Virus record (IMG/VR): IMGVR_UViG_3300031885_000008
Span: 3,382-67,381 of that record
DNA from: a virus
Direction: 5' to 3' (one strand)
Length of the DNA: 64,000 nucleotides
Under the pieces are notes generated by a model. That model ran no database searches. It saw nothing but the letters and a program-made list of their open reading frames with translations, and was not told the DNA's origin. Numbering within the stretch: the first letter of the stretch is position 1; the number at the start of each line of letters is the position of its first letter. The position numbers and the translations under genes are program-made. Shown piece after piece: positions 1,299-53,140 of the stretch.

Positions 1299-2099
1299 CT
1301 AGGGCGAGCGTCTCAGAACCCGACCCCACTTCGACAAAACCTCCCACTGCTCGCGCGTGACGAATCCAGACGACCATCCTATCAGGGCTGAGATCGAAGA
1401 TGCACTGCCCATAAAGTGAGAAAGATGCTCGTGCAGCTCCGGCCCCGTCTTCGAGACGGCTGTCTTTGTCTCATCGCTTCCAGGAGCGGCAACGAACTTG
1501 TAGTTGCCAAAGCTCGGAATAATGACGTCGAAGCCAAGCTTTTTCCAGTCGGCAAGCCCTTGCTTCACCTGGGCTTCCCCAACCACGTAGAGCTGGGGGC
1601 TTCCATAATCGACCTCGACCTCCGCGTTGGAAACCCCAGGCTTGGCGAAGGCCTCGAATGGAAACGTCTTATGACCTCGCGGCAAACCGTAGCTTGTCAT
1701 CCCGAGCACACGGTCCGAACCGAGATACGCGCGAGACTGAGCAAATAGACTGTTCGCCTCGCGTACCTGATTCTTGAGACCCAGCTCTGGGTCGAGCAGC
1801 CAACCGTCGACGGAACCGTTTGTGCATTCGATCATGTTGTGGAGGAACAGATCAATCCGATCGTGCCAACAGTAGCCCCAAACGTGTGCCGACACCCCAG
1901 CGGTTTTGAAGGCGTCAGCGTAATTCTGCACTTGGATCGGCTTGTTGACCCAGACCGAATTGTTTTCGTCGTGCCAGGGGCCTCCAATCGCTACCCACGA
2001 AATGCCTCGCTTGGCGTACTGGTCGGCTAGACGTGGCGGATCCAATTTCTTTGAATCGAGGTGGCGGAGGTAGAGACCGATACCGGTTGGGATGCTCAT
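1299..2099 (-). CDS. Putative endolysin (TIM-barrel glycoside hydrolase, GH25-like)
   Basis: GISWVAI...VWGY...WLLDPE (DxE)...GMTSY...SPQLY pattern; between tail fibre and holin. Confidence 0.55.
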   Translation of the reverse strand: MSIPTGIGLYLRHLDSKKLDPPRLADQYAKRGISWVAIGGPWHDENNSVWVNKPIQVQNYADAFKTAGVSAHVWGYCWHDRIDLFLHNMIECTNGSVDGWLLDPELGLKNQVREANSLFAQSRAYLGSDRVLGMTSYGLPRGHKTFPFEAFAKPGVSNAEVEVDYGSPQLYVVGEAQVKQGLADWKKLGFDVIIPSFGNYKFVAAPGSDETKTAVSKTGPELHEHLSHFMGSASSISALIGWSSGFVTREQWEVLSKWGRVLRRSP

Positions 2100-2107
2100 G
2101 ATATTTA

Positions 2108-3982
2108 TTAGGCTCGTGTCAAGGAGTACCACAAATCGTAATTATCACAGATGACGAAACGTCCATTGACGTACTTTATGCAGTTAGGATACGCAATAGT
2201 TGCGGCTCCAGAAACATCACCAATCTCTGCCTCAGACCACACTTTACCGCCACCCGTAGAAACTTGTGAATGATGCGAACCAGCCGCAATGTTTACCGAC
2301 CTGTACGAAGCCACTCCATACACACTAGACGCAAGATTCGCAATCGTCCAGGTCGTCCCATCTTGTGACCAATACGCTTTCGTTCCGCCAACAGCAATGA
2401 ATCGGTCTGCGGTGCCATCGTAACAAACACCAAAGAGTTCAGATGGTGGGGAAGATAGGCCTCCAGATACATCGGTCCACGTCGTACCGTTCGTCGAACG
2501 CATGACGAATGCGGAGCTGCTTTTCGATCCGACAGCTACGATTATTCCATTGTTATTACTTGCGACGGAATTCAACGTTGTGATACTAGAAGGAACTGTT
2601 GCTGCAGACCACGACGTCCCAGCCCCGGAATACCATGCTTTGCTTTTACCAACAGCAACTACGAGGTTGGCATTCGGGTCATACGCGAAAGCGCGTATCT
2701 CATCTCCAGTAGTTGTTGATGCAACAGTCTGTGAAGTCCACGACGAACACGTTCCGGTATTTGCCGTCTCAACAATTGCACCAGAAGCATTCTTTCCACC
2801 AACAATCGTCAAACCAAGAGATGTAACATAAATGACGCCAGTGATAGCAGTTGGCGTACTACCGAAGGATCCGCAGGCAGCCCAGGTATAACCCAAATTC
2901 GAGTAGATTGCGTGACACGTTGGTCCTGCAGCAAACACGCCAATAAGGATATAGTTTGCTCCGTTGTGTGTAATATCGTAAGGCGCGTAGCTAGATCCAC
3001 CATACACATCATCGAATGGTACAGCTTCTCGTGTCCAGTTCCCTCCAATAAGCATCGCAAAATCGCGATTCACCGCACCAAGATGGTTGAGTATGGATTC
3101 TAGTTGATCGCCGATAGATGCCGCTGAGATCGGAAATTCAGGGTAATTTATGGGGGATATTGCTGCCGATCCAACTCGATCGGATCCAGCGTTGGCCACT
3201 AAGTCGGTCACAATCTTGTCAAGCTGCGCTTCAACCGTCGCAGCCGGGTTGGTTGTTGAATCTTTCCACACCGGCCCCCCTGCATAATTGACCGCTGAGG
3301 CCACATGCTCACTAGATGTACCAGCTTTGTGTAGCGCGAGATCGGAGCCACTTCCAGAAATTGCATCGGCGAGAACTTGGACCGCCGCTTCGGTTGTCCC
3401 TACACCAACACTCGTTCCACTTGTCGTAGTAATCGCCCACTGACGACGTGTTGTCAGTACGTTAGCATTCAGAATCTGGGTCTGCCCGTAAATGAGCGTG
3501 ATGTCCGCCAAGAGGATCTCGTCGGAACGAAGGACGGGCGGTGTCCCTGGCGGCGTGCCCTCGGCGCCCTGGGCCACGTGAATCTCGTAACTCTCCGCCT
3601 TGTCGAAGTAGACGGTTGCCCCTGCGAGATCGAGACGTGGGTCTGAAACAACACGCTTGAACTTCGCGAAGACGCTGAGCTTCTTCCCGTTTCCGGGCGT
3701 CGTCACCGCGGTCGAGTTGGCGTTCTCGTCCACCGAACAGTTGACGTTTAGTAGGGACGTCCAACAGATACGCTGCCCGAGCTGGTCGTAGATCGTCGCG
3801 CCTACAATATCGACCGTCATGTTTGTAGTGCCGGCATGCTGGGATACGCCTCCACCTGAGGTGATCCCGATAATGCCGTTGTCGAGCGCCCAGTTCTGTT
3901 GTGCGGCTTCACATGCGTCGAACGCTTGGCCCAATTCTTGCTCTGATACCTTTTGCCCCGAGAACCAATCATAACTTTGCAT
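2108..3982 (-). CDS. Tail fibre / receptor-binding protein with C-terminal beta-propeller
   Basis: Start MQSYDWF; Asp-box-like repeats STNGTTW, SQDGTTW, SNLGYTW, STGGGKVW; follows baseplate genes. Confidence 0.75.
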   Translation of the reverse strand: MQSYDWFSGQKVSEQELGQAFDACEAAQQNWALDNGIIGITSGGGVSQHAGTTNMTVDIVGATIYDQLGQRICWTSLLNVNCSVDENANSTAVTTPGNGKKLSVFAKFKRVVSDPRLDLAGATVYFDKAESYEIHVAQGAEGTPPGTPPVLRSDEILLADITLIYGQTQILNANVLTTRRQWAITTTSGTSVGVGTTEAAVQVLADAISGSGSDLALHKAGTSSEHVASAVNYAGGPVWKDSTTNPAATVEAQLDKIVTDLVANAGSDRVGSAAISPINYPEFPISAASIGDQLESILNHLGAVNRDFAMLIGGNWTREAVPFDDVYGGSSYAPYDITHNGANYILIGVFAAGPTCHAIYSNLGYTWAACGSFGSTPTAITGVIYVTSLGLTIVGGKNASGAIVETANTGTCSSWTSQTVASTTTGDEIRAFAYDPNANLVVAVGKSKAWYSGAGTSWSAATVPSSITTLNSVASNNNGIIVAVGSKSSSAFVMRSTNGTTWTDVSGGLSSPPSELFGVCYDGTADRFIAVGGTKAYWSQDGTTWTIANLASSVYGVASYRSVNIAAGSHHSQVSTGGGKVWSEAEIGDVSGAATIAYPNCIKYVNGRFVICDNYDLWYSLTRA

Positions 3983-36035: not shown

Positions 36036-36866
36036 CTACCTACGTCTCCCACGCTTCCCGCCAAACTGTACCACCTTCTGAACCGACACGCTCGGCTGAG
36101 CAATCGAAGCGGGGCTGTCAACTTGCTCCACGTGCTCCGTCATGAATTCATTCTTTGAAACAGCCTCAACGATTTGCTCTACCAGGGATACTTCTGTTGT
36201 CTCTTCGGCAGGCTTCTCACACGAATCTGCAGCCGCTACTATGCTGTCAGAAATACATGAATTGGAAACACTCACTTCAACGTTTTCCTCTAGCGGATCT
36301 GCTGGAGTGCTTACCTCTGCATTGACGACACCACCACCTACGGTCGGCATCACAACTTCTTTCGCGTTCACTGGTATATCCTCAGACTGAACGCTAGAGG
36401 CGACATCCTCTCCCTTCCCTCTTAAAGCTCGCTCGGCATCCATCTCAACTTTCTGCCGAATCTTCCTACTCTCTTCGTTCAACTTGTTTGCCAGCAGCTT
36501 TGAAACAAGATCGACCTGCTTCTGAACAGCTCGAGATTCCCCCTTGAGCATCACGTATTCGGTAGCCGCGTTGGAATGATACGTCTCAATGAGTCGCTTG
36601 GCCTTGAGCACAATATCCCTGCGAGCCATCGCTTCTGCCCCGTCGACGTTCCCAGCTTCGGCCTCACTCCTCACTTCTGCAATTATGCCGTTCATCTGGG
36701 CACTCAAGGTTTTGCACGCTTCTTGTTTGCCAAGCTCTACCGGCATTTGCTCTCGCAGCAGCAAGTCCGATGACTTCTTGACGTGCTCTACCACAGCCTT
36801 CAGAGCCTGCGTATAGCCGAAAATCATTGGGTCTGCCTGGATCACATCGATGGGAACGTCCGACAT
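36036..36866 (-). CDS. Helical protein with acidic disordered tail
   Basis: GGAGG RBS; start MSDVPI. Confidence 0.65.
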   Translation of the reverse strand: MSDVPIDVIQADPMIFGYTQALKAVVEHVKKSSDLLLREQMPVELGKQEACKTLSAQMNGIIAEVRSEAEAGNVDGAEAMARRDIVLKAKRLIETYHSNAATEYVMLKGESRAVQKQVDLVSKLLANKLNEESRKIRQKVEMDAERALRGKGEDVASSVQSEDIPVNAKEVVMPTVGGGVVNAEVSTPADPLEENVEVSVSNSCISDSIVAAADSCEKPAEETTEVSLVEQIVEAVSKNEFMTEHVEQVDSPASIAQPSVSVQKVVQFGGKRGRRR

Positions 36867-36926
36867 GGTTGCCTCCTCCACGTGCAGACGATACCACGGG
36901 CATGTTTTGATGGGAAAGAACTAGGT

Positions 36927-40339: not shown

Positions 40340-41272
40340 TCAGACGGCGCGAACTCCAGTTGCCTTCACCACTGCGGGCTCATGGGCGAATCGGAAATCC
40401 ACCCGAGCCGTCACCACGATGATGTACACGCCGGCCGAGGCGTCCTTGTCGGTGTCGATTCGGATATTCCTCCAAATGCCGAAAAGCATGTTCGCGGGAT
40501 CCGTGAAAAGCACCACTGTCTCGTTGGTGCTTCCGCCGAGATTCACCGGGAAAATCGGAACGCCAATCACAGGAATTCCCTGGAACGGACGAGATTCCGA
40601 AGCCTGAACTTGCTCATCACCCAGAGGCGTCGCGCGATCGCCGAGGCTCTCCTGGTAATCGATATTGGCCTCATCCGCGGTGAAGAAGCGAAGGCTTCTT
40701 CGATCACGCCGAAACGCCGACGGCATGGTCTTCAACGCGTCTTTCAGCACTGACCGCTGAAGCGTAGCGCCACCGGCCGCGACAGTGTTCGTGAACGCCG
40801 ACGTGATGAACCCGTTCAGCGTCTTGAGCAGCTCATCGCTGGACGAGGTGATCCCGTTGAATGCCAACTCCTCCAGCTCCAACGCGATCTTGGCAGCCAT
40901 CGTCTCCTGTACGGTTTGCTCGAACCGCTGCCGCTCGATCGAATCCTCCAACGCCTCAAACGAAAGTCTCGTCTCCGCCTTCACGAGTTGGGCGTCCAGC
41001 TCCACCTTGCTGGTGGTCGGAACAGAACGCTGTGCGTAGGGCAGTGCCGTCGCTTCGGTTCCCTTCCTCAGCGTCCGACCCTCATACCGAATCTTCTCCC
41101 TCAATTCCTTTGGTGACGTCATGTCCACACGCGTCATCATGGGAATCACAACTGCCTGATCGATGAGCAGTTGAATGAACCGATCTCGCTGCGCCGACTG
41201 AAGAAGGCCGCCGGGCGCGAAATTCGACAGAAGAAAATCTGCCTTTTGGACTATGAACCTGTTGTCTTCCAT
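40340..41272 (-). CDS. Major capsid protein (HK97 fold)
   Basis: Start MEDNRF after GAGGAG; GGLL...RFI...ALEDSIE...ELAFNG...TARVD. Confidence 0.9.
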   Translation of the reverse strand: MEDNRFIVQKADFLLSNFAPGGLLQSAQRDRFIQLLIDQAVVIPMMTRVDMTSPKELREKIRYEGRTLRKGTEATALPYAQRSVPTTSKVELDAQLVKAETRLSFEALEDSIERQRFEQTVQETMAAKIALELEELAFNGITSSSDELLKTLNGFITSAFTNTVAAGGATLQRSVLKDALKTMPSAFRRDRRSLRFFTADEANIDYQESLGDRATPLGDEQVQASESRPFQGIPVIGVPIFPVNLGGSTNETVVLFTDPANMLFGIWRNIRIDTDKDASAGVYIIVVTARVDFRFAHEPAVVKATGVRAV

Positions 41273-41285
41273 TTCACGCGCTCCT

Positions 41286-42554
41286 CTACATAATCCATGG
41301 CGATTTGAGAACGCCACGGCGATCCGCATTTGCCTCAGGCTTGCCCTCGGGGCGGCTCGCTGGAATCTGCGGTGTGGATGCAATCTTCTCCACCGTAGAC
41401 ACCAACGCGTCAAGCCGCTTCATCACCGATGCAAGCACGCCTTCACCCTTGCTGGCCGGATCATCTCCGGTCGGACCCACCCCAACGTTGGGAAGAACCC
41501 CGGACTCGACCGCCGGTGGTATCGGCTGGTCCACCATGGCCCGCTTCTCAGCCGTCGTGATCAGCGCATCGACACGCCTCTTCAGCTCTTCCACAACCTT
41601 TGTCAACTGATCCACCAGCAGGGTTTGAGCAGCCGTCGGCTCTTCTGCGTTTGCCGATTCAGGCAAAAGCGCCTTCGTGACGCCGCACATCTCGACCTGC
41701 AAGGCGGCCAATGCCTCGGGGTCCGGCGCCTCAGCGATTCGCTGAATCACCGAAGCCAGCACTTTCATTTTGTCTGCGAATTCCGTTCCCAGAGCGGAAA
41801 GGGAAGCGACCACAGGCGCATCCGGAGGACTCGCTTGGGTCTCCTCTGCCTTTTGCTCCAGGGCCACAGGAGTTTCTTCCATGACATTCTCCTCGACCTT
41901 GGCAACCTCAGCACCTGAGGTCGGCGATGGATATTTCTCAACCAACGTATTCAGAGCTATTGCGAGCTGCCGAATTTTCGTGATGCAGTCTGACGCGAGT
42001 GAATCTTCCTGCGCCGCCTGCTTAGACAGCTCCAACGCTTGCTCGCCAATGGCGGCTAGGGTTGTGGCGACGACGCCCTCCGCCTTTGCAACCGGCGAAG
42101 GATACCGCGAAATTACACTCCCCAACAGATCGGCGATTGCCTTGATCTCTACACCGAGGGCGTTGTCCAGCGGAGCGTCCGAGGCTGCCGTTGTCTCTTC
42201 CGAATCCTTCACCATGTTGGCAACGGATACGGTACGCTCCAACACCTCGGTCAAAATGCGCAAGATGCCCTCCTTCACCGTCGAGGGCATCCCCGCCGAG
42301 CCACTTCCTTCAGCCGAGCTTCCCTCCGGAGACGTAGCTGGCTGCCCAACTTCTTCTGCCTTATTGATATTGTCCACGGATCCACCTCGTTGCTTGACCA
42401 CAAGGAAACGGCGTCGATTGGCGGCTCGGTCAACGATTGAAACCTCTTCCACAAGGATGTCGTGCAATCGAAACGCGGCTTCGTCCTCGTCGGGACTCCC
42501 TCCGAGGAACGCTCTCGCAACAGCTAGCACGCTATCCAGTTTTCTGATTTCCAC
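41286..42554 (-). CDS. Scaffold protein carrying an N-terminal prohead-protease fragment
   Basis: RLHDILVEEVSIVDRAAN...FLVVK, then Ala/Glu/Pro-rich helical region; precedes MCP. Confidence 0.75.
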   Translation of the reverse strand: MEIRKLDSVLAVARAFLGGSPDEDEAAFRLHDILVEEVSIVDRAANRRRFLVVKQRGGSVDNINKAEEVGQPATSPEGSSAEGSGSAGMPSTVKEGILRILTEVLERTVSVANMVKDSEETTAASDAPLDNALGVEIKAIADLLGSVISRYPSPVAKAEGVVATTLAAIGEQALELSKQAAQEDSLASDCITKIRQLAIALNTLVEKYPSPTSGAEVAKVEENVMEETPVALEQKAEETQASPPDAPVVASLSALGTEFADKMKVLASVIQRIAEAPDPEALAALQVEMCGVTKALLPESANAEEPTAAQTLLVDQLTKVVEELKRRVDALITTAEKRAMVDQPIPPAVESGVLPNVGVGPTGDDPASKGEGVLASVMKRLDALVSTVEKIASTPQIPASRPEGKPEANADRRGVLKSPWIM

Positions 42555-42562
42555 GTTGTTGA

Positions 42563-45500
42563 CTATATCTCGCGATTGTTACAGGACGAAAGCTTTTCTC
42601 GCAATGCTGTGCCGCCCATTGAAAATCCAGTAAACTCACCCGCCTGAATGGCCGCCCATATTTTGTCGTCTCTAACTCTGGAAGCCAAGAACCATGTTCC
42701 AGTCGGAAACGTTTCTTCCCCGTGCGTCTCTGGTTGCTTGGAGAGGTAGGACTCCAAAACTTGTATGCCCTCGATCGGCTCACCTTGGTGCATAACCCGG
42801 AACTTTCCGCCGAAAAATTCCAAAAACGAATGAGCAGCTTTGCGTACGTCCGCAGCCGTGTACACGTCGCCCTGCGCATCAGTCTCATCTGGAATCAGCA
42901 CCACGCCAAACACATATCGCTCTGAGGTGTCCTTGGTTGGCTCCACAGCCTTCACGATACGCACTGCACGGCCATTCTTGCGAACGTTTTTCATGTCCGC
43001 CTCTCCAGCCTCCAAGGCATCTTTTGAACCAGAGGAGATCTCTCCTGGACGAAGCAACGCCTTCAACTCCGAAATCGTTGTCGGAGGCATATCAACTTTC
43101 GCCAGTGCCTGCGCCGGCCCAAACCACCTAATGCGAATCGGAGGCCCCTCCTCGAAAAATATTTCGGTCGTTGTCGTCGCGATAACGTCTCCGACATTCG
43201 CATCCAGTTTACGGTTTCCCGTCCGACCGACCATCACCCAATGCTTCCCGTTCAGCTCGACAGGCTCAGCCCACTGAGACAGCTCCCCCTCTGGAATTGG
43301 ACCGATGGCGCCAACAAAATTGTAAACGCCAGGCGACCCTTTCACCTCGTGCCGTTCAACAACCATCGCGAGAATTTCCCGGACGACTTTCACCTTCACC
43401 CACAAATCCTGCTCCCCACCGAGCGAGTAGGTGGAGCCGATCTGTTTGAGCATCGCCCCCTCAGACCCGGGCTTTGCACTCATCACCTTCATCCGCTGAA
43501 GGAGTTCCTCCCGAGAAACCGCAAGCAACCCGGGAGCCTTCAAAATGTGGGGAGCCGAATCCTTATGTTCGAGCAACCAGGCGCCCAAACTCGCTTCGCG
43601 TTTTGCCAGCGGTTGCGCAAGTAGGTTCCCCAACGTGGGGTGATACAGCATGTCAAACACAACAAACCGAAGCTGCTCATCGTCAGCCGGCGCTGTCCCT
43701 CGGAACTGCGCCAAATCTGCACGGGGGAGAAACTCATCGGTGGTACCTGGCACGAGCGCCATAATCTCACCGTCGAGAATGAAGCTCCCCCCGAGGCCTT
43801 CCAAATCCTTTGTCAGGCCAGGCAGGATCTTAGCGAGGTCGCGCTGCGCGTCCTCCGTATAAATCATCACCCCCTCATCCAAAACGTCATCGTCGAGACC
43901 GGCCTCCCATCGTTCCGCGATTGCTCGAAAGCCGTTGTACTTTGGCTCAACTCGAACGCCATCCGCAAGTAGGGCGTCGGTGAAGGCTTCGCGAGCGGCC
44001 GTCTCGGGATCTGTGAATCGATTGGAGGGACGCGGCGCAGGTTTCATCGGCTGAAACAAAGCTGGAGGCCGAAGTTTCTCGCGGTCTCCCCCCCGGTCGT
44101 CAGTCTCAGACCTCGATGCAATGTCCCACATTTGCATTCCGTCCTCCCGCACCCGAACGGACTTCTCTATCGAGGGCACATTCCTGGACGGCACACTTCC
44201 AGGCGAAAAAATCCAAAAGTCGCTTCCGACTTCTTCCAGGACCAGCGTAAACAAGCCCTTCAGTTTGGACCCCCGAAACCGAAGCTTCTTGAAGGTTGGC
44301 TGATCGTCCAACACGTCGACCTTTCCCTGGTCGATTATCTTCATTGTCGAAGGAGTCGCCTTTGTATTGTTCAGACGAATTCCGCCAACTTCAAGCCCTG
44401 GCGAGGCATCCCCCTCGAACGTCAGAAGCTCATCGCTGCCCTCAACCAAAACCGCCAAAATTGATTCCTCACCTGATAAAGGATCAATTTGCAGTTGAAA
44501 ATCTTGTACACGCCCTCCCGCTGGAACAGGAAGCATCAGGTGGAAAATTTGCCTACTGGGTGTCCCACGAACAACGGTCTGCCCCTTCCAATATTGCCAG
44601 GACAGTACAAAGTCCGAAACACGAACCTGCTTATCAAGCTGCTCGACGTCGATGGCGTCGGAACGCACCTTGGTGGAGATTCTCGTGTAATCTCCGTCGA
44701 CGAAACGAACGTTCTCCTCAGTGAAAAACTTGGAGGACACCAACGCATCCCGAATTTTTCGGGCCTCAGCTTCCCCGTCAGCCTCCCAAAACCGAAACTC
44801 ACGTGGCGTGATTGCCATCAACGACGAGGGCATCGCCGACTGCCCAAGCGGAGGCATCGCGCCAGTCTCCACCGAACGACTGCGAAGGATCGAAGGCAAC
44901 GCAACCTTGGCAAATCCGGACGTCCAGAACATCTCGCCCGTGCCAGTGAGATCTTCAGTAGACCGGCTGACGCCGCCTTCGAGCATGCGGAACGTCAAGG
45001 TCCCCTCAAACTCTGGCGTACCAAACACAAAATACTCGTGAAAATGGGGATCTTGTTTGCCCCATTCGACTTTGAGCTTCGCCAGCTCGACGTAAACGCC
45101 TGCCTCAAATCGCGTCGCTCCAACCGACCCTGGCTCGAACACAACGTCCCCAATCGTCAGCCACTCGAGAGGCTGCCTCGACTTCGGAACGGCGTAGACA
45201 CGGCTCGGAAGGATCATCGCCTTGTTGGCCGCCGACCCCTCCATATCAAATGGAGCCATGACACGATTGGCTTCCTCAATCGTATCCACTTTCCCAGTAA
45301 TTCCAGGCTTCATCGCCGCAATCGTCCATCCAACCAGATAGTCGGCGACCTGCATACGGAGGTCGAGATGATAGCCCGACCCCCTAAAATGAGCCTGTAG
45401 AACTCCGGACCGCTCCCCAAGCTTCTTCGGCCAATCTAAAAGCGGGTCGTCTTGCTTCGCTACCATCTCGATCTGGACTTTTCTGGCATGCGGAACCAGC

Positions 45501-46600
45501 ACCAGATCGTACAACGGAACGTGGGTCGTGAACGGACCCCCCTGCGAATCGTCATGAAACTGAACACGGGAAGACAGCCGAGGGGGCAATGCGCGGCCAA
45601 GCCGAAACTTGATCACATGCCTGGTCTCTTCATCCAACGGACCCCGAATGAGCACGTCAATATCATTGTCCGACTTCCGATGGTTGCACAATGACCCCAC
45701 CAAAAAGACCGCCGGCATTCGCAGAGCCATCGGTTGGGACCAGTGCGCCAGCACCTCGTCCAAGGTCGCCGGGTCATCGTGATGCTTCCCAAGTCCGCTC
45801 GGATGAATCACCGCAAACTTTGAACCAATAACAGACTTGAGAACTGCAGCCGCCCCATCCAATCCAGGATCGGACGTCAACTCGAGTCCCCTCCGGCGAC
45901 CTTCCTCCATTACGAAAATGTAAGCGTTGACTACGTCTTCCCGTGAAGCGCCGCCTCCACTGTTAGCCGAGTTCCCCGCAAAAAATTCCGTAAACCACAG
46001 GATCAAATCTTTCTGGGCAGTCCTCAAATCCTCATCTGAGAGAGAGCGTAGTCGCTCAGGATCGGGTGCGGCAACAAACTGCATCACGTCAAACGCTACG
46101 GCCTTGACCACATCCTGGTCAAAGTCGACCTCGCCGCCGAAGCGTCGTCCTTCTGGAGCTTGCCGAAGCTTCAACGGAGGATCAAACACAACCACGAGCT
46201 GTAGCGGCAAATACCAGATGTTCTTCTCGGTTGAAAATTCCTCGGCCGTCAGCGGGTCTATTCCAGCTCGCTGCTCCTTGGACAGTTCAACCATTGAAGC
46301 CATGGCTATCGGAGCGTCTTGAGCGACAACGGCCCATACGAACACGCTCTTCGGGTTGCTCTGGGAAAGCTCGTTCACGAGCGCCTGGGGATCTCCAACT
46401 CGTTCGGTGCGCTGGCGACGAGAAAGCAACGCTGCGGACTCCCCCTGGCGCAGCCGTCTTACAAGGAATTGGGGATCCGGAACTTTGAGCGCCGGCAGCA
46501 CGCCACGAGGTGGCTCAAATTTGCTCACCCGAAACGCTCCCTGCCCTGAAATAGTTTCCGTGGTCAAACCCGTCACCGCCGCTGGAAAAGAATCTTCCAT
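42563..46600 (-). CDS. Polyprotein: ASCH-like + DenV-like + nucleotidyltransferase + two LigD-PE-like + ATP-dependent DNA ligase + XkdF-type prohead protease
   Basis: VFLVGSL...SDNDIDVLI; LQAH...HLDLR; EPKYNGFR / LDGEI / FVVFD / EGAMLK / WVKVK; FGVVLIPD..DAQGD...MHQG...GFSMGG. ASCH and DenV calls are weaker than the rest. Confidence 0.85.
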   Translation of the reverse strand: MEDSFPAAVTGLTTETISGQGAFRVSKFEPPRGVLPALKVPDPQFLVRRLRQGESAALLSRRQRTERVGDPQALVNELSQSNPKSVFVWAVVAQDAPIAMASMVELSKEQRAGIDPLTAEEFSTEKNIWYLPLQLVVVFDPPLKLRQAPEGRRFGGEVDFDQDVVKAVAFDVMQFVAAPDPERLRSLSDEDLRTAQKDLILWFTEFFAGNSANSGGGASREDVVNAYIFVMEEGRRRGLELTSDPGLDGAAAVLKSVIGSKFAVIHPSGLGKHHDDPATLDEVLAHWSQPMALRMPAVFLVGSLCNHRKSDNDIDVLIRGPLDEETRHVIKFRLGRALPPRLSSRVQFHDDSQGGPFTTHVPLYDLVLVPHARKVQIEMVAKQDDPLLDWPKKLGERSGVLQAHFRGSGYHLDLRMQVADYLVGWTIAAMKPGITGKVDTIEEANRVMAPFDMEGSAANKAMILPSRVYAVPKSRQPLEWLTIGDVVFEPGSVGATRFEAGVYVELAKLKVEWGKQDPHFHEYFVFGTPEFEGTLTFRMLEGGVSRSTEDLTGTGEMFWTSGFAKVALPSILRSRSVETGAMPPLGQSAMPSSLMAITPREFRFWEADGEAEARKIRDALVSSKFFTEENVRFVDGDYTRISTKVRSDAIDVEQLDKQVRVSDFVLSWQYWKGQTVVRGTPSRQIFHLMLPVPAGGRVQDFQLQIDPLSGEESILAVLVEGSDELLTFEGDASPGLEVGGIRLNNTKATPSTMKIIDQGKVDVLDDQPTFKKLRFRGSKLKGLFTLVLEEVGSDFWIFSPGSVPSRNVPSIEKSVRVREDGMQMWDIASRSETDDRGGDREKLRPPALFQPMKPAPRPSNRFTDPETAAREAFTDALLADGVRVEPKYNGFRAIAERWEAGLDDDVLDEGVMIYTEDAQRDLAKILPGLTKDLEGLGGSFILDGEIMALVPGTTDEFLPRADLAQFRGTAPADDEQLRFVVFDMLYHPTLGNLLAQPLAKREASLGAWLLEHKDSAPHILKAPGLLAVSREELLQRMKVMSAKPGSEGAMLKQIGSTYSLGGEQDLWVKVKVVREILAMVVERHEVKGSPGVYNFVGAIGPIPEGELSQWAEPVELNGKHWVMVGRTGNRKLDANVGDVIATTTTEIFFEEGPPIRIRWFGPAQALAKVDMPPTTISELKALLRPGEISSGSKDALEAGEADMKNVRKNGRAVRIVKAVEPTKDTSERYVFGVVLIPDETDAQGDVYTAADVRKAAHSFLEFFGGKFRVMHQGEPIEGIQVLESYLSKQPETHGEETFPTGTWFLASRVRDDKIWAAIQAGEFTGFSMGGTALREKLSSCNNREI

Positions 46601-46979: not shown

Positions 46980-47416
46980 GATTTTTCCCTCCGCGCTCGA
47001 GTACCACCTGTGACCTTGAGCTGCACCTTGTCCGCTGTTCCAAGCGTCAACGCTGTAATACGGAAGGCAGCATCATGCCCTCGAACGGCTGCCAACGCAG
47101 TGATGCCTGTGGTCAACGAGGCAACCGTCGAAAGAATTCTCCATCGCCGCCCAACCGTCGAAATAGCATCGGGCGTCGCGATGAGAATTTCAATAGTTAG
47201 CGCCCCTCCAACGTCGGCCACCCCCAGCTTTTCCCAGTCAGCTACAAGCTGGACGTCGTCCCACTCTCGAGCGTCCAAGGTAACTGCCTCGGAGATAACT
47301 CCCGCAGAAATCTCCCCGGCGCTCAAATTATCAGGCGTCCAATCTGCAGCATCCGAAGCAGCTCGATTTGGCCGAACGACTACCGCAGCGTCTTGGCTGT
47401 AAAGCCTCTTTTTCAC
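46976..47416 (-). CDS. Hypothetical beta-rich protein
   Basis: GTGA overlap with portal stop; GAGGAGG RBS. Confidence 0.6.
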   Translation of the reverse strand: MKKRLYSQDAAVVVRPNRAASDAADWTPDNLSAGEISAGVISEAVTLDAREWDDVQLVADWEKLGVADVGGALTIEILIATPDAISTVGRRWRILSTVASLTTGITALAAVRGHDAAFRITALTLGTADKVQLKVTGGTRARREKS

Positions 47417-49203
47417 TGAGCATCCTCCTCATTCGATTTTCGAGAGAGCCTCCCGACAGCCTCGTCAAGATCCTGAAGCGTCGTATCCGCCACCTGCGGC
47501 AATGCTGGACCAGCAATTCCGACAAACGGTTGGGCCGGCTGTCGTTGCACCCCCGGCAGCGACGAATTCGTGTCACCCATGGTCAGCTCCACCATGGTCA
47601 ACTGCAGCGGTTGCTTTGCCCAATCCTGTTCGATGGGCGCAAACGCGCATCCCATAATGTCACTTGCCAACTCCCGACCTTCGTTCGGCGTAATAACACC
47701 GACCTTTGACAAACTCGAAATAACCTCAGCCCCGGTGCTCTGATCTCGAGATTGGGGTCCGTTCGTCCGAAATAGCCATAACAAAATTCCAAGCTCGGAA
47801 AATACAACTCTATTTACCCACGAATCGAACTCTGTACGTTCCGGATTGAATACTTGCTCATCGGCAAAGCGTAGGGAACTTTCAGCCGTCCCGCGGTTGA
47901 AATCACGAACGTCTCCTCTCAACAACCTAGGCAGTCGAAAAGAAGATCCAACCTTGTCGGTATTTCTCTCGTCGTATTTTTGAAACAGCGCATCCCCTTG
48001 CTGGGCGTCGGTGAGCCGTTCCATCTTGATCACGGGGTTTTCTCGAGGAGACAACGGATCGTTATCTGTCTCAGCCTCTATCACGAGAATCTTGTGAAAA
48101 TTCTCTCTGCCACGCAAATTGTCTCGAATGTAGGTCTCAATCGTGGCTACGGATTCCGCCGCAAGCCGACCACCAGACACGAGCAAGGCCAGAGGAGGAA
48201 CGGATTTGTTGTCAAAATAATTGTAGTTCACTTCCTCTGAGGCTCGCGACCCCAACACCGACAACAAACTTCCAATCCAACGAGGTTGCCCGTACGGCTC
48301 GCCCGTGGCGTATATCTTGAAGTGCGCAATTTCAGTTGCAGGTTGATCGTGCTGCCCGGCATGCTTCGTAAACGTGGCAATATCCGAATAGACGTAGCCT
48401 GTATCCCGCGATACAACCCTCGGATCTCCGAGTTCCTTGAACCAAACAAGCTTTGCCCCAATGGCTTGAACGTATCGCCTGAAAAAACGAGGTTGTCGGA
48501 TTGTTTCCCAACTCAGCCCATGTCGAACCCGCTCCGTCACAATAATCGGATCGACATCCAAACCTGTACAACGCATGTATGAGGGTGGCACGTGTACAAA
48601 TCGAGCAAGCCGTCCTTGCCGATCCCTCAAACATTCCCAGTAACCATTTCCGGTTATCTCAATATCCTGCCGGGTTATTCTCCTAAGCGTAACGAACGAA
48701 CTCGACGGGCTGACATGCTCAAAAAATGACACGAGCTTTCCATACTCAAGCCGTGCACGAATTTTGAGACCCTCGATAGCCAGGGCGACCTCCGCATCGG
48801 AGGGTCGCAAATGCACAGGGTCATTTGCGTTTGGCTGAAGGGATGACCCAGGAAGACTGACATGCTCCTCCGCTTCAGAAACACGCTCAAGCCACATAGC
48901 GTCGCGAACGCGCTCAAACGAAGCGTCAGAGTTCAAATCAATTCGTGGCGCAAACCGATGCCCAAGACCATCAATGTTCGTAACGTACGCCTGCACATTT
49001 GGGCCGAGCGCCCCAGAATTCTCGTACCACCGAATGAGAACCAACGGATCGTAAACTGGCGCAAGAACCTGGGCTTGACGAAAAAGTCCCCCAAGGATGT
49101 CCGCCTGCTCGTCCTGTATTGACGCTGGCGCATGGACGTCAGCGCCGGCAATCCGAGCCTTCACCGTCGTGTGCCTCGGAAACTCTCGCGACGTATCAGT
49201 CAT
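47413..49203 (-). CDS. Portal protein (PBSX family)
   Basis: DIEITGNGYWE...EIAHFK...YGQPRW...YFDNKSVP...FNRGTAE...TPNEGR. Confidence 0.93.
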   Translation of the reverse strand: MTDTSREFPRHTTVKARIAGADVHAPASIQDEQADILGGLFRQAQVLAPVYDPLVLIRWYENSGALGPNVQAYVTNIDGLGHRFAPRIDLNSDASFERVRDAMWLERVSEAEEHVSLPGSSLQPNANDPVHLRPSDAEVALAIEGLKIRARLEYGKLVSFFEHVSPSSSFVTLRRITRQDIEITGNGYWECLRDRQGRLARFVHVPPSYMRCTGLDVDPIIVTERVRHGLSWETIRQPRFFRRYVQAIGAKLVWFKELGDPRVVSRDTGYVYSDIATFTKHAGQHDQPATEIAHFKIYATGEPYGQPRWIGSLLSVLGSRASEEVNYNYFDNKSVPPLALLVSGGRLAAESVATIETYIRDNLRGRENFHKILVIEAETDNDPLSPRENPVIKMERLTDAQQGDALFQKYDERNTDKVGSSFRLPRLLRGDVRDFNRGTAESSLRFADEQVFNPERTEFDSWVNRVVFSELGILLWLFRTNGPQSRDQSTGAEVISSLSKVGVITPNEGRELASDIMGCAFAPIEQDWAKQPLQLTMVELTMGDTNSSLPGVQRQPAQPFVGIAGPALPQVADTTLQDLDEAVGRLSRKSNEEDAQ

Positions 49204-49433
49204 GTTGGCGACGCTATCACGAAGATCTCCGAATCGCACGTGTCGTCCCACAAATTATCTTGGAAGCTGTCATCGATCACCACCTCATCACCACCAAATA
49301 TTTCCGATCCCACCAGGAAACAACAAACGACAGCTACAGCAATAACGAGTGCAAAAATATCTACAGTCCACCTCGAACGCGCCAGGTCCCAAGGTTCAGA
49401 CGTACGTCGACGTCTATAGCTCTCCAGCTCCAT
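49200..49433 (-). CDS. Small membrane protein
   Basis: GGAGGAGGAG RBS; IFALVIAVAVVCCFLVG; ATGA overlap with portal start. Confidence 0.55.
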   Translation of the reverse strand: MELESYRRRRTSEPWDLARSRWTVDIFALVIAVAVVCCFLVGSEIFGGDEVVIDDSFQDNLWDDTCDSEIFVIASPT

Positions 49434-49694: not shown

Positions 49695-49853
49695 CCGAGC
49701 TACCGCTTCGATGGAAAGCTGGCAGCCTGCCACGTGACCGTCACCTCGGCGCCGGTCACCCCCTGGCTCGTCGCTGAGCTACCGTCACGTGGTAGCCAGG
49801 AGGCCCGCCCGGAGGTCAACCCCCCCGCGTCTGGGCGGGTCTCCAACTATTTT
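49695..49853 (+). ncRNA. Candidate structured non-coding RNA
   Basis: 12-bp, 6-bp and 15-bp stems whose only non-Watson-Crick pairs are G-U on the + strand; promoter upstream. Confidence 0.45.
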
Positions 49854-51892
49854 CCCAAAATCCTTACGTTGCTCTGTGCCGACTGTCGTTCCTTACGCTT
49901 TCGACGATGCGTCTCATACATGCGCGATGCTTCTCTCGCAAACCAACTGTTATGCACGGCAATCCCCTCGACCACAAAAGATTCATCATGCTTGACGTGC
50001 AAGTTGCAGACAAGCCCCTCGTACATCACATGACGTGCGTACTCAATACGCACAACATCACCAGCGCCATCCTCCTGCATGCCGTCTGGAACCCCCGGGG
50101 CAAAGACGAAATCACTCTGCGGTCCTTCTCCAGCACGAAGTGACACGGCTGAACGGAAATCCCATGCATGCGGAACCGCCCTAGTCTCATGCTCAGGGTT
50201 GACCCATGGCAACGCCGACCATACCGGATGCTCCGCAGTCATGAGAATCTCTACAAACCCGCAGGCGCGCAACCGGACCGCATCCCCTCGATACCATGTG
50301 CACGTCGTCCCAGTGACCTCCTGCCACCTCGACTTGTGGGTGAGGACGAAGTCCCCTCGAACAACTTGCTCAATCGGGACAAGGCCGCGCTTCGTCACCA
50401 CGAGATACCCAGGTGCGATGCATGCCATGAGCAGGTCGCCGGTATGCCTGCCAGGATCGTACCCGACGAGGTCAGAAATCCATTTCCCAACCTGAGGGTC
50501 TACAATACGGTTTCCTTGCTGGCATGGAATGATCCACCGACCAGCCGCAAGCTCCCCCGCAAGACTCTCCACACCATACTCGGGCGAGAGCTTATTCCTC
50601 CCTGTCGTGAACGACCGGACGCGGAGACCAGGATATTTCTCCCTTGTCCACTGCAAAATAAACTCTTGGGCCGCATTATTCTCTACAACCATTACTGATC
50701 GAAACCGGTCGTGCACCGAAGCAAGCCGGTCGATGATCTCTGGTCCCTGCCACCTACCAGACTGAATTTCAAGAATCTGTCGAGACCCATCCGGCCAGGT
50801 CAACAGCGTAAAAATCACTGACAAATCCGACTTCTCTCGCCCGGTCGACACGTCCACACCAGAAACAACCATCACATTATCGGGCAAACCTCCCATAGCC
50901 AGGATCGAATCATTGATCTGAAATGCCTCTGCAAGCATCGGATACCGAGCCGCCAAGTCGTTCAGGTCCTGCACCAGCGGATGACCCTCCCCACGAGCTA
51001 GGCACGTCTCAATCCATTCCCTCTTGAACCTCGCCGTGCTCTCGTCCCGTGGCTGACAAAGCATCTGCCTCGAGAACTCCACCGGCCCCAGCGTCTTCGT
51101 GCGAACATGCTCGATGCGAGACAACGGCCAGCGTTCCGGCCACGTCGAGCGCCCAACGTCGTCGATCACGGGATACCGTTTTGCCCACCACCCTTGCCGC
51201 TCGAGAACATGCGCCATGTCATCCGGATGCCACGCGTTCGTCAGGAATGCGATCCACGCATCCTCCGACAGTCGCGTAAACGCCGATGAGCGGATCCACT
51301 CCTCTATCTTCTCCCGCTGATACCTCGTCCGCGTGTTGTTCTCGTTGAGGACGTCGTCAACGATGAGACCGTCCAGCCTGGCCCCCTGCATATTCCCACC
51401 CTCGGGCGAGTAGGCCTGCACCGATGGATCCTTTATGCCGCTCGGACGCCGCACTTCGATAGCCGAATCGGTCCAAAACAATCCCCGTCGGAGATTGGGG
51501 AACACATCGCGAAGGGTCTTGCTGTTCACGATGTAGCCTTGAATCGTACGGATGACCTTCTTCGCAGCATTCTGCGTGGCACTCAACACAGCAATTCGCT
51601 GGCGAGGATCACGCCCAAGAACCCACAACGGCCGGGCGATAGCCATCAACGAGGTCTTCCCGGCATCTGGATGCGTCCAGAGCACCACGTTCCGATTCTT
51701 CTCGAGCACGTCGCTCCACTCGAAATGGAACGGCATGAGCGTAATCGGCTCCCCCTTCTCTTCGTCCCGCAATACAAGGGAGCAAAAAGTCGGAAAATCC
51801 ACACGGGCACACTGAAGAAGCGAGGAGTACGCTGACGCCGACGCGGCCAGCAGAGGATGCAGGTCTTCCGACAGGTCAAGCCCAACTGACAT
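49847..51892 (-). CDS. terL: Terminase large subunit (intein-containing)
   Basis: Walker A HPDAGKT, Walker B LIVDD, nuclease GVDVS...VENN...GDLLMA. Confidence 0.93.
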   Translation of the reverse strand: MSVGLDLSEDLHPLLAASASAYSSLLQCARVDFPTFCSLVLRDEEKGEPITLMPFHFEWSDVLEKNRNVVLWTHPDAGKTSLMAIARPLWVLGRDPRQRIAVLSATQNAAKKVIRTIQGYIVNSKTLRDVFPNLRRGLFWTDSAIEVRRPSGIKDPSVQAYSPEGGNMQGARLDGLIVDDVLNENNTRTRYQREKIEEWIRSSAFTRLSEDAWIAFLTNAWHPDDMAHVLERQGWWAKRYPVIDDVGRSTWPERWPLSRIEHVRTKTLGPVEFSRQMLCQPRDESTARFKREWIETCLARGEGHPLVQDLNDLAARYPMLAEAFQINDSILAMGGLPDNVMVVSGVDVSTGREKSDLSVIFTLLTWPDGSRQILEIQSGRWQGPEIIDRLASVHDRFRSVMVVENNAAQEFILQWTREKYPGLRVRSFTTGRNKLSPEYGVESLAGELAAGRWIIPCQQGNRIVDPQVGKWISDLVGYDPGRHTGDLLMACIAPGYLVVTKRGLVPIEQVVRGDFVLTHKSRWQEVTGTTCTWYRGDAVRLRACGFVEILMTAEHPVWSALPWVNPEHETRAVPHAWDFRSAVSLRAGEGPQSDFVFAPGVPDGMQEDGAGDVVRIEYARHVMYEGLVCNLHVKHDESFVVEGIAVHNSWFAREASRMYETHRRKRKERQSAQSNVRILGK
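49949..50422 (-). mobile_element. Mini-intein (158 aa) in terL
   Basis: CIAPGYLVVTKRGLVPIE...TAEHPV...VCNLHV...FVVEGIAVHN followed by Ser; no endonuclease domain. Confidence 0.92.
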
Positions 51893-51908
51893 GCGTCTAC
51901 CTTCCTTC

Positions 51909-53140
51909 GGGCAGAGGGCTGTTGCCTTCAGGCGACAGATGAATGCCCGCTCCAACAAACACAATTTTTTGCCAAGCAGCTATCTTTATGCTAGCTTTCT
52001 CATGGTGCGTAAGACCTTCAAGTACCGACTATATCCGACCAAGGCACAAGCCAGCAAATTCGGCGCGATCCTTGAAGAATGTCGCTGGCTGTACAACAAA
52101 ATGCTGGAGGAGCACAAGTACACCTGGGAAGTCGAGTAGAAGGTGATTGGCCTGTACGACCAGCATGCTCGACTGCCTGCGCTCAAGTCGGCCAGGCCGT
52201 CTTTGGAAACAGCACACAGCCAGGTTCTCCAGAACGTCTGCCTCCGGCTTGACCTCGCATTCAAGGCTTTCTTCCGGCGGGTCAAAGCGGGTGAAGCACC
52301 CGGCCACCCGCGCTTCAAGAGCTTCGGCCGGTACGACAGCTTCACGTTCCCGCAAGCCCCGTCCGGATGCCAACTTCGTGGCGAAAAGCTGGTCGTGTCC
52401 AAGGTCGGTCCAGTCAAGATAGTCCTGCACCGTCCGGTCGAAGGCGTCGTCAAGACAGCGACGATCCGGCGCACAGCGACGGGCAAGTGGTTCGCGTTCT
52501 TCTCTTGCGAGCTTGAGCCAAAGCCCTTGCCAACCAGCACCGAGCGCGCAGGAATCGACGTCGGCCTCATGACGTTCGCGACCCTGTCGAACGGCGAGAA
52601 GATCGAAAACCCTCGGTTCTTTCGACGGGAAGAGAAGGCGCTCGCGCAAGCTCAGCGCAAGCTCTCGGCAACGCCTAAAGGCACGCCCAAGCGGGTCAAA
52701 CTTCGCAAGGCTGTTGCCCGTGTTCACGAGCGCAGCACGAACCGGCGGCACGACTTCATCCATCAGCAGAGCCGCAGGCTCGTCAACAGGTTCGGCCTGA
52801 TCGCAGTCGAAGACCTGAATGTCAACCGCATGGGAAGAGAGCGAAAGTTCTCCAAGAGCATTCACGACGCGGCGTGGTCGATGTTCTTCGCGTGCCTGTC
52901 CTTCAAAGCGGAAGAAGCTGGTCGGACGATGGTCGCGGTGAATCCGGCGTACACCTCGCAGGACTGTTCGCGGTGCGGACAGCGACAGCTCATGCCCTTG
53001 GCAGAGCGTGTCTACCGCTGTCCTTCCTGCGGGCTCGAACTCGATCGGGATCATAACGCGTCGCTCAACATTCTAGCCGTGGGGCTGCACGGCCTGGGCT
53101 TGCCCTAGAAGCCCTCGGCTTTAGCCGAGGGAGCAGTCAC
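51909..53140 (+). mobile_element. IS605/IS1341-type tnpB-only element 3
   Basis: Left end GGGCA-GAGGG-CTGTTGCC-TTCA-GGCGACAG-ATGAA-TGCCC; right end CCCTCGGC-TTTA-GCCGAGGG-AGCAGTCAC. Confidence 0.82.
52002..53108 (+). pseudogene. tnpB: TnpB interrupted by one in-frame TAG (52137-52139)
   Basis: MVRKTFKYRLYP...WEVE*KVIGLY in one frame; GIDVG / VEDL / DRDHNASLNI intact; TTGCCA-17-TAGCTT promoter. Confidence 0.85.

Follow-up and report, generated by a model that had tools for sequence, protein, structure and literature searches.

A lysine motif at the domain junctions of a polyvalent phage protein: candidate cleavage sites of its C-terminal prohead protease

Polyvalent proteins of phages and plasmids hold two to fifteen unrelated domains in one polypeptide, and, according to the text of Iyer et al. 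2017 (PMC5512222), an assemblin-like peptidase in them is always C-terminal and probably processes them during virion assembly. The same text states that polyvalent proteins with such a peptidase are thought to be delivered with the DNA, and that the virion RNA polymerase of N4 is packaged unprocessed (PMC5512222). In the HK97 pathway, prohead processing follows assembly (text of PMC12749128 and PMC10275583), and the capsid protein is cut at K103/S104 (text of PMC10275583). The proteases T4 gp21 and SPN3US gp245 use a short P3-x-P1 motif with a P1' preference at many sites of packaged, ejected substrates, and in SPN3US 14 sites in nine substrates are described, with several motifs per propeptide (text of PMC10052503). 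Here, we analyzed a 64,000-nucleotide stretch of DNA (the window; positions 3,382 to 67,381 of IMG/VR record IMGVR_UViG_3300031885_000008) from a tailed phage. Its head module encodes a 1345-amino acid (aa) polyprotein that ends in an XkdF-type prohead protease and has the motif [VIL]-x-K-[ASQ] (the strict motif; core, [VIL]xK) in or at each linker between its predicted domains. We consider it fairly probable that the C-terminal protease cleaves the chain at the linker sites, and probable that this XkdF-type protease dissects the packaged polyvalent protein, the scaffold, and the tip of the capsid protein at V/I/L-x-K sites.

The polyprotein shares with the polyvalent proteins the combination of unrelated enzyme domains in one chain, the head-gene neighbourhood, and the peptidase at the very C-terminus (compared with the text of PMC5512222); it has about seven domains, the last being the peptidase. 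Judging from the gene position and the predicted docking described below, it may also be delivered into the host with the DNA. The text of PMC5512222 gives no cleavage motif and no linker-by-linker scheme, the ligases that it mentions are RNA ligases not found with polyvalent proteins, and a LigD-like cargo set does not appear in it; its figures and supplementary architecture lists may differ, and the latter may include ligase-bearing forms. A prohead protease with a short motif and polyvalent cargo are known in principle (texts of PMC5512222 and PMC10052503), while the domain-by-domain dissection of protease-fused cargo with Lys at P1 and a docking element borne by the scaffold would be the new parts. 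T4 gp21 and SPN3US gp245 cut after Glu and remove N-terminal targeting propeptides from separate cargo (text of PMC10052503). In the window phage, by contrast, P1 would be Lys, cargo and protease form a single chain, and the predicted cuts fall between whole enzyme domains. The Glu motifs presumably read A-x-E in SPN3US and L/I-x-E in T4.

The likeness to HK97 should be noted. The two proteases share the S78/S78_2 Pfam name group, the HK97 cut is Lys followed by Ser (F-N-K/S in the HK97 sequence), and the digested scaffold domain of 103 residues is rich in the motif (4 strict matches vs 0.58 expected, against 0 vs 0.46 in the mature part). However, the HK97 scaffold is an N-terminal domain within the capsid protein, and the protease is a free polypeptide of 225 aa that carries no enzyme cargo. 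The same pattern is found in cultured relatives, whose capsid proteins belong to the same family as that of the window phage (phrog_1623) with 34–36% identity. In the PBSX-like Bacillus phage PBP180 (ORF10, KC847113), the N-terminal element of the scaffold, the protease, and the scaffold form one chain, which has 10 motifs vs 1.5 expected, one of them immediately ahead of the protease core. The scaffold-like protein of the Stenotrophomonas phage DLP5 has 9 motifs vs 2.0 expected. In DLP5 and RcZahn, I-K-K-[AS] stands at the start of the proteases and I-K-K-A or L-Q-K-A at the start of the capsid proteins; both proteases are free proteins of about 200 aa, whereas about 1200 enzyme residues are fused upstream in the window phage. 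In DLP5 (MG189906), a ParB-like nuclease gene (1892–3232) lies between the portal and the free XkdF protease, the position taken by the fused cargo in the window, and its product has 3 motifs vs 1.75 expected. In the literature searched, figures and supplements aside, neither the linker cleavage code, the proposed XkdF-type specificity, nor the LigD-like cargo was found, and no fusion of a ligase to a prohead protease is described.

The original prediction had proposed the strict motif as a self-processing code after listing matches in the polyprotein, in the scaffold, and at the capsid N-terminus. All of these sites are present at the residues assigned to them, and their coordinates were checked (Table 1). 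Four matches in the polyprotein (VPKS at K473, ILKA at K1021, VRKA at K1254, and LSKQ at K1288) and two in the capsid protein (LVKA at K98 and VVKA at K303) had been omitted. The enrichment that was looked for is found in all three proteins, judging from 5000 shuffles of each: 10 strict motifs observed vs 2.63 expected in the polyprotein (P=0.0002), 6 vs 1.45 in the scaffold (P=0.002), and 3 vs 0.57 in the capsid protein (P=0.016). The other 77 open reading frames (ORFs) of the genome, in a crude call of 79, mostly have 0 or 1 match. A 281-aa ORF without family (36036–36881, minus strand) has 4 matches vs 1.1 expected and may encode another protease substrate or an internal head protein.

AlphaFold2 was run on two halves of the polyprotein with homologue alignments, and the mean predicted local distance difference test (pLDDT) values are 79.5 and 79.1. 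The half-models have about seven domains and six linkers, and residues 1–27 are disordered. Each of these linkers contains or adjoins one of the six listed lysines, which agrees with the original assignment of one site to each linker between seven domains, and the four unlisted matches lie in confident strands, helices, or loops of domains 4, 6, and 7. The internal segments with pLDDT <50 are residues 259–269, 293–295, 366–369, 378–384, 547–550, 640–657, 672–681, 810–814, 835–837, and 1191–1213. Three of the lysines, K382, K657, and K813, are inside such segments (378–384, 640–657, and 810–814, respectively). K255 is at the end of the last helix of domain 2, four residues before segment 259–269, and K1217 is in a short modelled strand, four residues after segment 1191–1213. 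K166 is in the short connector of domains 1 and 2, between strand 154–159 and helix 172, and misses the low-pLDDT cut because the linker 1 block has a pLDDT of 74. When objective linkers are defined as the internal pLDDT <50 segments widened by 5 residues (186 of 1302 residues, 14.3%), 5 of the 10 motif lysines fall in them (binomial P=0.008), and the probability that 10 random sites hit all six hand-drawn linker windows (138 residues) is about 2–3e-6, both values being optimistic because the windows and the motif were chosen with knowledge of the data.

The conservation of the sites was examined in homologues of the polyprotein, 24 of which were found and 21 aligned with the window protein (22 sequences; 35–57% identity in the alignment). 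The homologues are 1220 to 2087 aa long and differ by whole domains; some carry a Dam methylase (PF02086) or a 2H phosphoesterase (PF02834, PF13563), according to Pfam. The six linker windows were mapped through this alignment, with the window protein included. The original prediction supposed conservation in homologous linkers, and the strict motif is indeed found there 81 times vs 9.9 expected (5356 residues, 8.2x), compared with 77 vs 54.6 in the rest of the chains (29,061 residues, 1.4x). For the core, the corresponding ratios are 2.9x and 0.92x. From linker 1 to linker 6, the core is present in 20/21, 14/21, 12/21, 18/21, 17/22, and 22/22 sequences, and the strict motif in 10/21, 8/21, 11/21, 14/21, 10/22, and 15/22. 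At the position of K166, Lys is found in 17/22 and the strict motif in 9/22 of the aligned sequences; Lys is kept at the position of K813 in 18/22, despite large His-rich inserts just upstream, and the core at the position of K1217 in 21/22. Among the matches outside the linkers, K1021 is kept in just 1/22. Close relatives (97% and 92% identity) keep all sites and are uninformative. The three-residue core persists between linker flanks that vary freely and accept inserts of as many as about 400 residues, and it is the combination of conservation with variable flanks that singles out the linker sites.

The motif is also recovered without the window protein. We scanned 400 gapped dipeptides in 114 linker segments of the homologues, with inserts of >100 residues pooled with the domains. 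VxK ranks 4th (54 vs 20.1 expected, z 7.6), LxK 8th, and IxK 13th; the pairs above VxK are HxH, which is the most enriched and comes from the His-rich insert, YxL, and NxN. K-x pairs in linkers are led by K-Q (4.2x) and K-A (2.1x), both of which are at expectation in domains, and V, I, or L stands at P3 of 46% of the linker lysines vs 22% of the domain lysines. Inserts that are absent from the window protein (methylase-, 2H-phosphoesterase-, and ASCH-like-sized) mostly have sites at or near both ends, and the methylase-sized inserts at linker 4 are bracketed by sites.

Outside the polyprotein, the comparison was extended by a pattern scan of IMG/VR with alignment, which gave 78 loci. A protease-bearing ORF, an ORF at the scaffold position, and a capsid gene stand in this order in 48 of them, and 34 non-redundant loci remain after removal of those whose capsid proteins are ≥80% identical. 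In the 34 loci, the strict motif exceeds the expectation from composition 2.26x in polyproteins, 2.88x in scaffolds, and 3.24x in capsid proteins. The residue most enriched two places after V/I/L is Lys in the polyproteins and the scaffolds, and Lys is second in the capsid proteins, behind the rare Cys. In the polyproteins, the P1' enrichment after [VIL]xK is highest for A, Q, and S. The recurrence in the scaffold and at the capsid N-terminus, which had been read from the window, is thus family-wide. At the aligned capsid N-terminus (about residues 7–16), [VILM]-x-K-A is present in 34/34 loci, directly before a conserved acidic/hydrophobic stretch. The number of K10 is counted from the ATG at 41272, a start backed by 34 aligned homologues; a longer form from TTG at 41413 is possible. 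K98 and K303 lie in the folded body of the capsid protein; around K98, the sequence L-D-A-Q-L-V-K-A-E is conserved throughout the family. A similar context, F-S-K-Q, surrounds the HK97 lysine that we take to be the cross-linking one.

The 422-aa scaffold has no Pfam family, is rich in Ala, Glu, and Lys, and is poorly conserved; the mean identity among the scaffolds is 16%. An N-terminal element with the consensus E-V-S-L-V-D-R-A-A-N-x-R-x-F-L-V-V-K, ending in K54, is common to 31/31 aligned scaffolds, and V41, A45, and K54 are invariant in all of them. W420 near the C-terminus is nearly invariant (41286–41312, minus strand), and the last 15 residues include [VILMF]xK in 12/34 scaffolds, that of the window (V-L-K-S-P-W-I-M) among them; the scaffold C-terminus may be a capsid-binding tail that is freed by the last cut.

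The protease domain is well supported. Peptidase_S78_2 (PF14550) matches aa 1222–1334 with 89 bits vs a cut-off of 24 and covers profile positions 7–124 of 126, and PHROG head maturation protease families match at E 7e-27; PF04586 (Peptidase_S78) was not reported by Pfam for the polyprotein. The domain ends 11 residues before the stop, and the gene lies in the head module adjoining the scaffold and HK97-fold capsid genes, the position expected of Peptidase_S78_2. Since H1271 and S1327 (in GFSMGG) are invariant in 22/22 and in 32/32 sequences, the protease looks active, judging from sequence. A profile of the 32 sequences aligns weakly with HK97 gp4 in hhalign (E 0.063 over 97 columns), pairing H1271 and S1327 with H65 and S114, which we take to be the catalytic residues of gp4. 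In a PDB sequence search, the protease domain has no solved relative (best E 0.53). HMMER with this domain gave 5902 representative proteins, and the best 146 were examined. Among these best 146, the domain lies ≤25 residues from the C-terminus in 133, and of the 142 whose upstream sequence is long enough, 140 have [VILMF]xK at most 21 residues ahead of the protease core. At least 150 residues are fused upstream in 117 and at least 400 in 56, which indicates that enzyme–protease fusions are common in metagenomes.

The position of the scaffold N-terminal element in relatives should also be noted. In PBP180, residues 50–153 match residues 1226–1332 of the polyprotein (35% identity over 108 aa, E 1e-15), and residues 10–29 match the scaffold element of the window phage (E 3e-4). 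In the window phage, DLP5, and RcZahn, the scaffold carries the element, and the protease belongs to a different protein. A complex of protease 1195–1345 and scaffold 1–75 is predicted with a score of 0.86, while the best of three controls has 0.00; 58 of 80 solved complexes and 2 of 110 mismatched pairs score as high, counts that apply only approximately because custom alignments were used. The docking runs agree in ≥73% of contacts, with a partner pLDDT of ≥52. In the predicted interface, scaffold residues 26–55 face much of the protease core, including residues 1322–1337 around Ser1327. The model supports binding of the protease to the scaffold at the level of a prediction. If the docking is real, it would account for the loading of a 148-kDa chain and suggests a protease that needs the scaffold to be complete. 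The idea, implied in the original prediction, that the scaffold N-terminus continues the protease C-terminus did not hold, given that the PBP180 element precedes the protease. We rejected the candidate in which it supplies a missing C-terminal strand of the protease, as the polyprotein itself matches the Pfam profile up to position 124 of 126 and the PBP180 element is N-terminal.

Four domains of the polyprotein have named folds, according to Pfam, AlphaFold2, and Foldseek. For domain 1, ASCH proteins are weakly matched in Foldseek (5y6b, E 0.05, probability 0.98; 2kku; 2eve). Domain 3 has weak matches to MntA (7bxo, 7aer, 6m6u; E about 0.1), its N312, D313, and D315 are nearly invariant in the alignment, and the source annotation of one homologue is "predicted nucleotidyltransferase". 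Domain 4 matches 3p43 with E 2.2e-5 (TM-score 0.77 on the target) and 3n9d and 3n9b with E<1e-3; H404, H411, D413, and R415 are invariant and may be its catalytic residues. Domain 5 has no family in Pfam or PHROG; its AlphaFold2 strands are at positions 21–161 of the half-model. Domain 6 is matched by DNA_ligase_A_M (PF01068; aa 879–1071, 57.8 bits) and by DNA ligases in Foldseek at E about 1e-13, and in its K-x-N-G context K887 is nearly invariant and N889 and G890 are invariant. The C-half model gave no Foldseek match for the protease or domain 5, its output being dominated by ligases. The NCBIfam models of full-length ligases and of LigD all match weakly, far below their cut-offs, and, judging from the LigD scores, domain 6 is therefore not an orthologue of bacterial LigD. 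The primase-polymerase domain of bacterial LigD is absent from the Pfam, NCBIfam, and Foldseek output for the polyprotein, and the MNT-like nucleotidyltransferase occupies the chain instead.

Two recurrent modules are seen in the homologues. A module of ~110 aa recurs at differing chain positions in five homologues, in inserts and N-terminal extensions, and is followed each time by a V/L-x-K-[AS] site; we take it to be ASCH-like from a signature that we presume to be G-x-K-T-L-[VL]-V-K-[ST]-[RK]. Its recurrence points to domain shuffling within the family. In many homologues, His-rich repeats (G-H-V-H, H-x-H) of 60–130 residues stand just before the conserved lysine of the linker between domain 5 and the ligase, at a position corresponding to about 44150–44180 of the window, and similar repeats are found in N-terminal extensions. 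These His-rich inserts may be a metal-binding module.

From the architecture, the motif statistics, the position in linkers, the conservation, and the predicted docking, we infer the following scheme, in which the cutting, its place, timing, and completeness, the retention in the virion, and the enzyme activity of the fragments are all conditional. This protease class would recognize V/I/L-x-Lys, mostly with Ala, Ser, or Gln as the next residue, and would cut behind the Lys. The protease domain would dock on the conserved N-terminal element of the scaffold, and the whole polyprotein would thereby be carried into the procapsid. There, the concentrated protease would cut the exposed linker sites of its own chain into the pieces 1–166, 167–255, 256–382, 383–657, 658–813, 814–1217, and 1218–1345, chop the scaffold at six sites, and remove the first 10 residues of the capsid protein. 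Small scaffold peptides would exit the shell, while the enzyme domains of 10–45 kDa, too large to leave, would remain in the head and enter the host with the DNA as a kit for end healing and sealing. A further step is possible but doubtful: the scaffold strand would hold, and perhaps complete or switch on, the protease, so that co-assembly triggers the release of an injected repair kit against damage by host-defence nucleases. In that split-protease arrangement, cargo domains would be gained or lost by insertion of a domain together with a site, and the inserts in the homologues are mostly bracketed in this way.

Several observations weigh against cleavage at the linker sites. The motif was defined by an earlier reader after seeing the data, and 4 of the 10 matches in the polyprotein are within folded domains, so that the motif alone is insufficient to mark a cut. 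Two of these, K473, which is invariant, and K1254, which is kept in 15/22 sequences, further indicate that conservation alone marks no cut site. The folded domains show a 1.4x excess of the motif, and 196 control ORFs of the same loci show 1.46x; therefore, part of the signal is generic. Because of their shared ancestry, the homologues do not provide independent counts. The strict motif is present at linkers 2 and 3 in only 8/21 and 11/21 sequences. The residue after scaffold K54 is mostly R, not A, S, or Q. Residues 1214–1218 around K1217 are modelled as a strand attached to the protease, and the near-universal conservation of this site could be structural, judging from the model. The predicted docking may reflect likeness to a single-chain fold rather than binding, because PBP180 has the element and the protease in one chain. 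The literature searched gives no measured cleavage site or specificity for an XkdF-type protease, and the link to HK97 specificity rests on a family name and the weak profile match (hhalign E 0.063). The self-processing code is thus retained in part: the linker excess, the conservation, the sites at new junctions, and the match with the HK97 cut speak for it, while the motif by itself does not suffice. In its definition, the [VIL]-x-K core holds, and P1' is looser than [ASQ]: the residue after K54 is mostly R, and the pre-protease site has A, T, G, S, or R there.

The same observations can be read in other ways. Processing could take place in the cytoplasm, either in cis or by one free chain acting on another, in the manner of RNA-virus polyproteins, so that the enzymes act in replication and just the freed protease, or nothing of the chain, enters the prohead. 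A cut at the pre-protease site, nearly universal among the best 146 of the 5902 proteins (140/142), would free the protease, and the free protease of ~200 aa in the cultured relatives indicates that the enzyme works without cargo. DNA ligase is, moreover, an ordinary replication-phase phage enzyme. We nevertheless regard cytoplasmic processing as unlikely, as the gene lies between portal and scaffold in the late head operon of all 34 non-redundant loci and the predicted docking would bring the attached chain into the shell. In addition, such prohead proteases are generally held to act after assembly (texts of PMC12749128 and PMC10275583), and C-terminal assemblin-like peptidases occur in proteins thought to be delivered with the DNA (text of PMC5512222).

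Alternatively, V/I/L-x-K could be a structural or binding element, such as a strand end with a helix cap at domain borders or a scaffold- or capsid-binding peptide, or its lysine could serve in, for example, HK97-type isopeptide cross-links, the polyprotein being delivered whole. The strand 1214–1218 packed on the protease, the predicted docking surface of scaffold 26–55 that ends in K54, and the conservation of K473, K1254, and capsid K98 (LVKA) in folded parts are consistent with this, as is the unprocessed packaging of N4 virion RNA polymerase (text of PMC5512222). Against it, short stretches of pLDDT <50 with variable, insert-bearing flanks hold four of the six linker sites, the motif is piled up in scaffolds of very low mutual identity, and it coincides with the known HK97 cut; the preference for A/S/Q after Lys, seen in linkers and not in domains, is unexpected for a pure border element. 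Such a role appears quite unlikely. Very unlikely, in our view, is cutting by a host or other trypsin-like protease, or a by-product of composition and ancestry without function. Cellular serine proteases most commonly have a specificity for Lys at P1, and the definition of the motif after the fact and the excess in control ORFs also speak for these readings. However, the enrichment survives shuffling, is specific to head proteins within the genome, reaches about 8x in linkers vs 1.4x in domains, and is recovered by the unbiased scan without the window protein, and the motif accompanies the protease family in PBP180, DLP5, RcZahn, and HK97, whose hosts are unrelated.

The features of the locus are collected in Table 1. 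The head module is on the minus strand of the 67,381-bp contig, in the order terminase, portal, two small ORFs, the 1345-aa protein, scaffold, and HK97-fold capsid, and the order protease-bearing protein, scaffold, capsid is found in 48 IMG/VR loci (34 non-redundant). The standard code reads the genome well, with ORFs covering 92.8%. A frameshift or read-through joining the polyprotein and the scaffold was considered and rejected. The GTG start of the scaffold lies 8 nucleotides after the TAG stop of the polyprotein in a different frame, and this frame is shut by a TAA (42579–42581) 16 nucleotides before the end of the polyprotein stop codon, too short a distance for a programmed shift. Reading the junction by eye shows no slippery heptamer, and read-through of the TAG would continue in a frame unrelated to the scaffold. 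Two separate ORFs are present in 34/34 non-redundant loci, where the stop and start often overlap. Upstream of the terminase gene and antisense to it lies a TnpB/IS605 OrfB-type gene (51891–53108, plus strand; HTH_OrfB_IS605, OrfB_IS605, and Cas12f1-like TNB), which is split by one in-frame TAG (52140–52142) and could be a pseudogene, a sequencing error, or a case of read-through. The terminase has ~190 extra C-terminal residues and a weak Hint_2 match at aa 515–551 (20.8 bits, below the cut-off of 28.4), which may be an intein or a Hint remnant.

Table 1. Genes, predicted domains, and candidate cleavage sites of the head module, in window coordinates
Feature	Position	Strand	Residues	Remark
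Large terminase	49847–51964	minus		
Portal	47413–49251	minus		
Two small ORFs between portal and 1345-aa gene				without family
Polyvalent protein	42563–46600	minus	1345 aa	seven domains, C-terminal prohead protease; Pfam, AlphaFold2
Domain 1	46121–46513	minus	30–160	beta-rich, ASCH/PUA-like (weak assignment); AlphaFold2
Linker 1 site VVKA	46100–46111	minus	K166	
Domain 2	45824–46087	minus	172–259	helical, no family; AlphaFold2
Linker 2 site VLKS	45833–45844	minus	K255	
Domain 3	45506–45793	minus	270–365	MNT-like nucleotidyltransferase; AlphaFold2
Linker 3 site VAKQ	45452–45463	minus	K382	
Domain 4	44672–45445	minus	386–643	LigD-type 3'-phosphoesterase fold and helical part
Linker 4 site LDKQ	44627–44638	minus	K657	
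Domain 5	44174–44629	minus	658–809	beta-rich, unnamed; AlphaFold2
Linker 5 site IEKS	44159–44170	minus	K813	
Domain 6	43031–43966	minus	879–1190	ATP-dependent DNA ligase, adenylation and OB domains
Linker 6 (pre-protease) site IVKA	42947–42958	minus	K1217	
Domain 7	42599–42937	minus	1222–1334	XkdF-type prohead serine protease; modelled 1214–1330
Scaffold protein	41286–42554	minus	422 aa	GTG start; assigned by position between protease and capsid
Scaffold N-terminal element	42390–42479	minus	26–55	ends in K54; predicted protease-docking strand
Scaffold site VVKQ	42390–42401	minus	K54	
Scaffold site INKA	42357–42368	minus	K65	
Scaffold site VAKA	42081–42092	minus	K157	
Scaffold site LSKQ	42018–42029	minus	K178	
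Scaffold site VTKA	41670–41681	minus	K294	
Scaffold site VLKS	41301–41312	minus	K417	
HK97-fold major capsid protein	40340–41272	minus	310 aa	Pfam Phage_capsid; phrog_1623, E 1.9e-78
Capsid site VQKA	41240–41251	minus	K10	

We propose hydrophobic-x-Lys as the substrate specificity of XkdF-type proteases, a pattern that is visible in HK97, PBP180, DLP5, and RcZahn. If cleavage takes place as proposed, a family of double-stranded DNA phages would use a polyprotein strategy inside the capsid, in which one late gene delivers several enzymes in a fixed ratio and a three-residue linker code sets their separation. It would also give a sequence-based rule for predicting the mature virion proteins of thousands of uncultured phages, help to annotate packaged anti-defence or repair cargo, and allow the design of cargo for a phage head to load and release.

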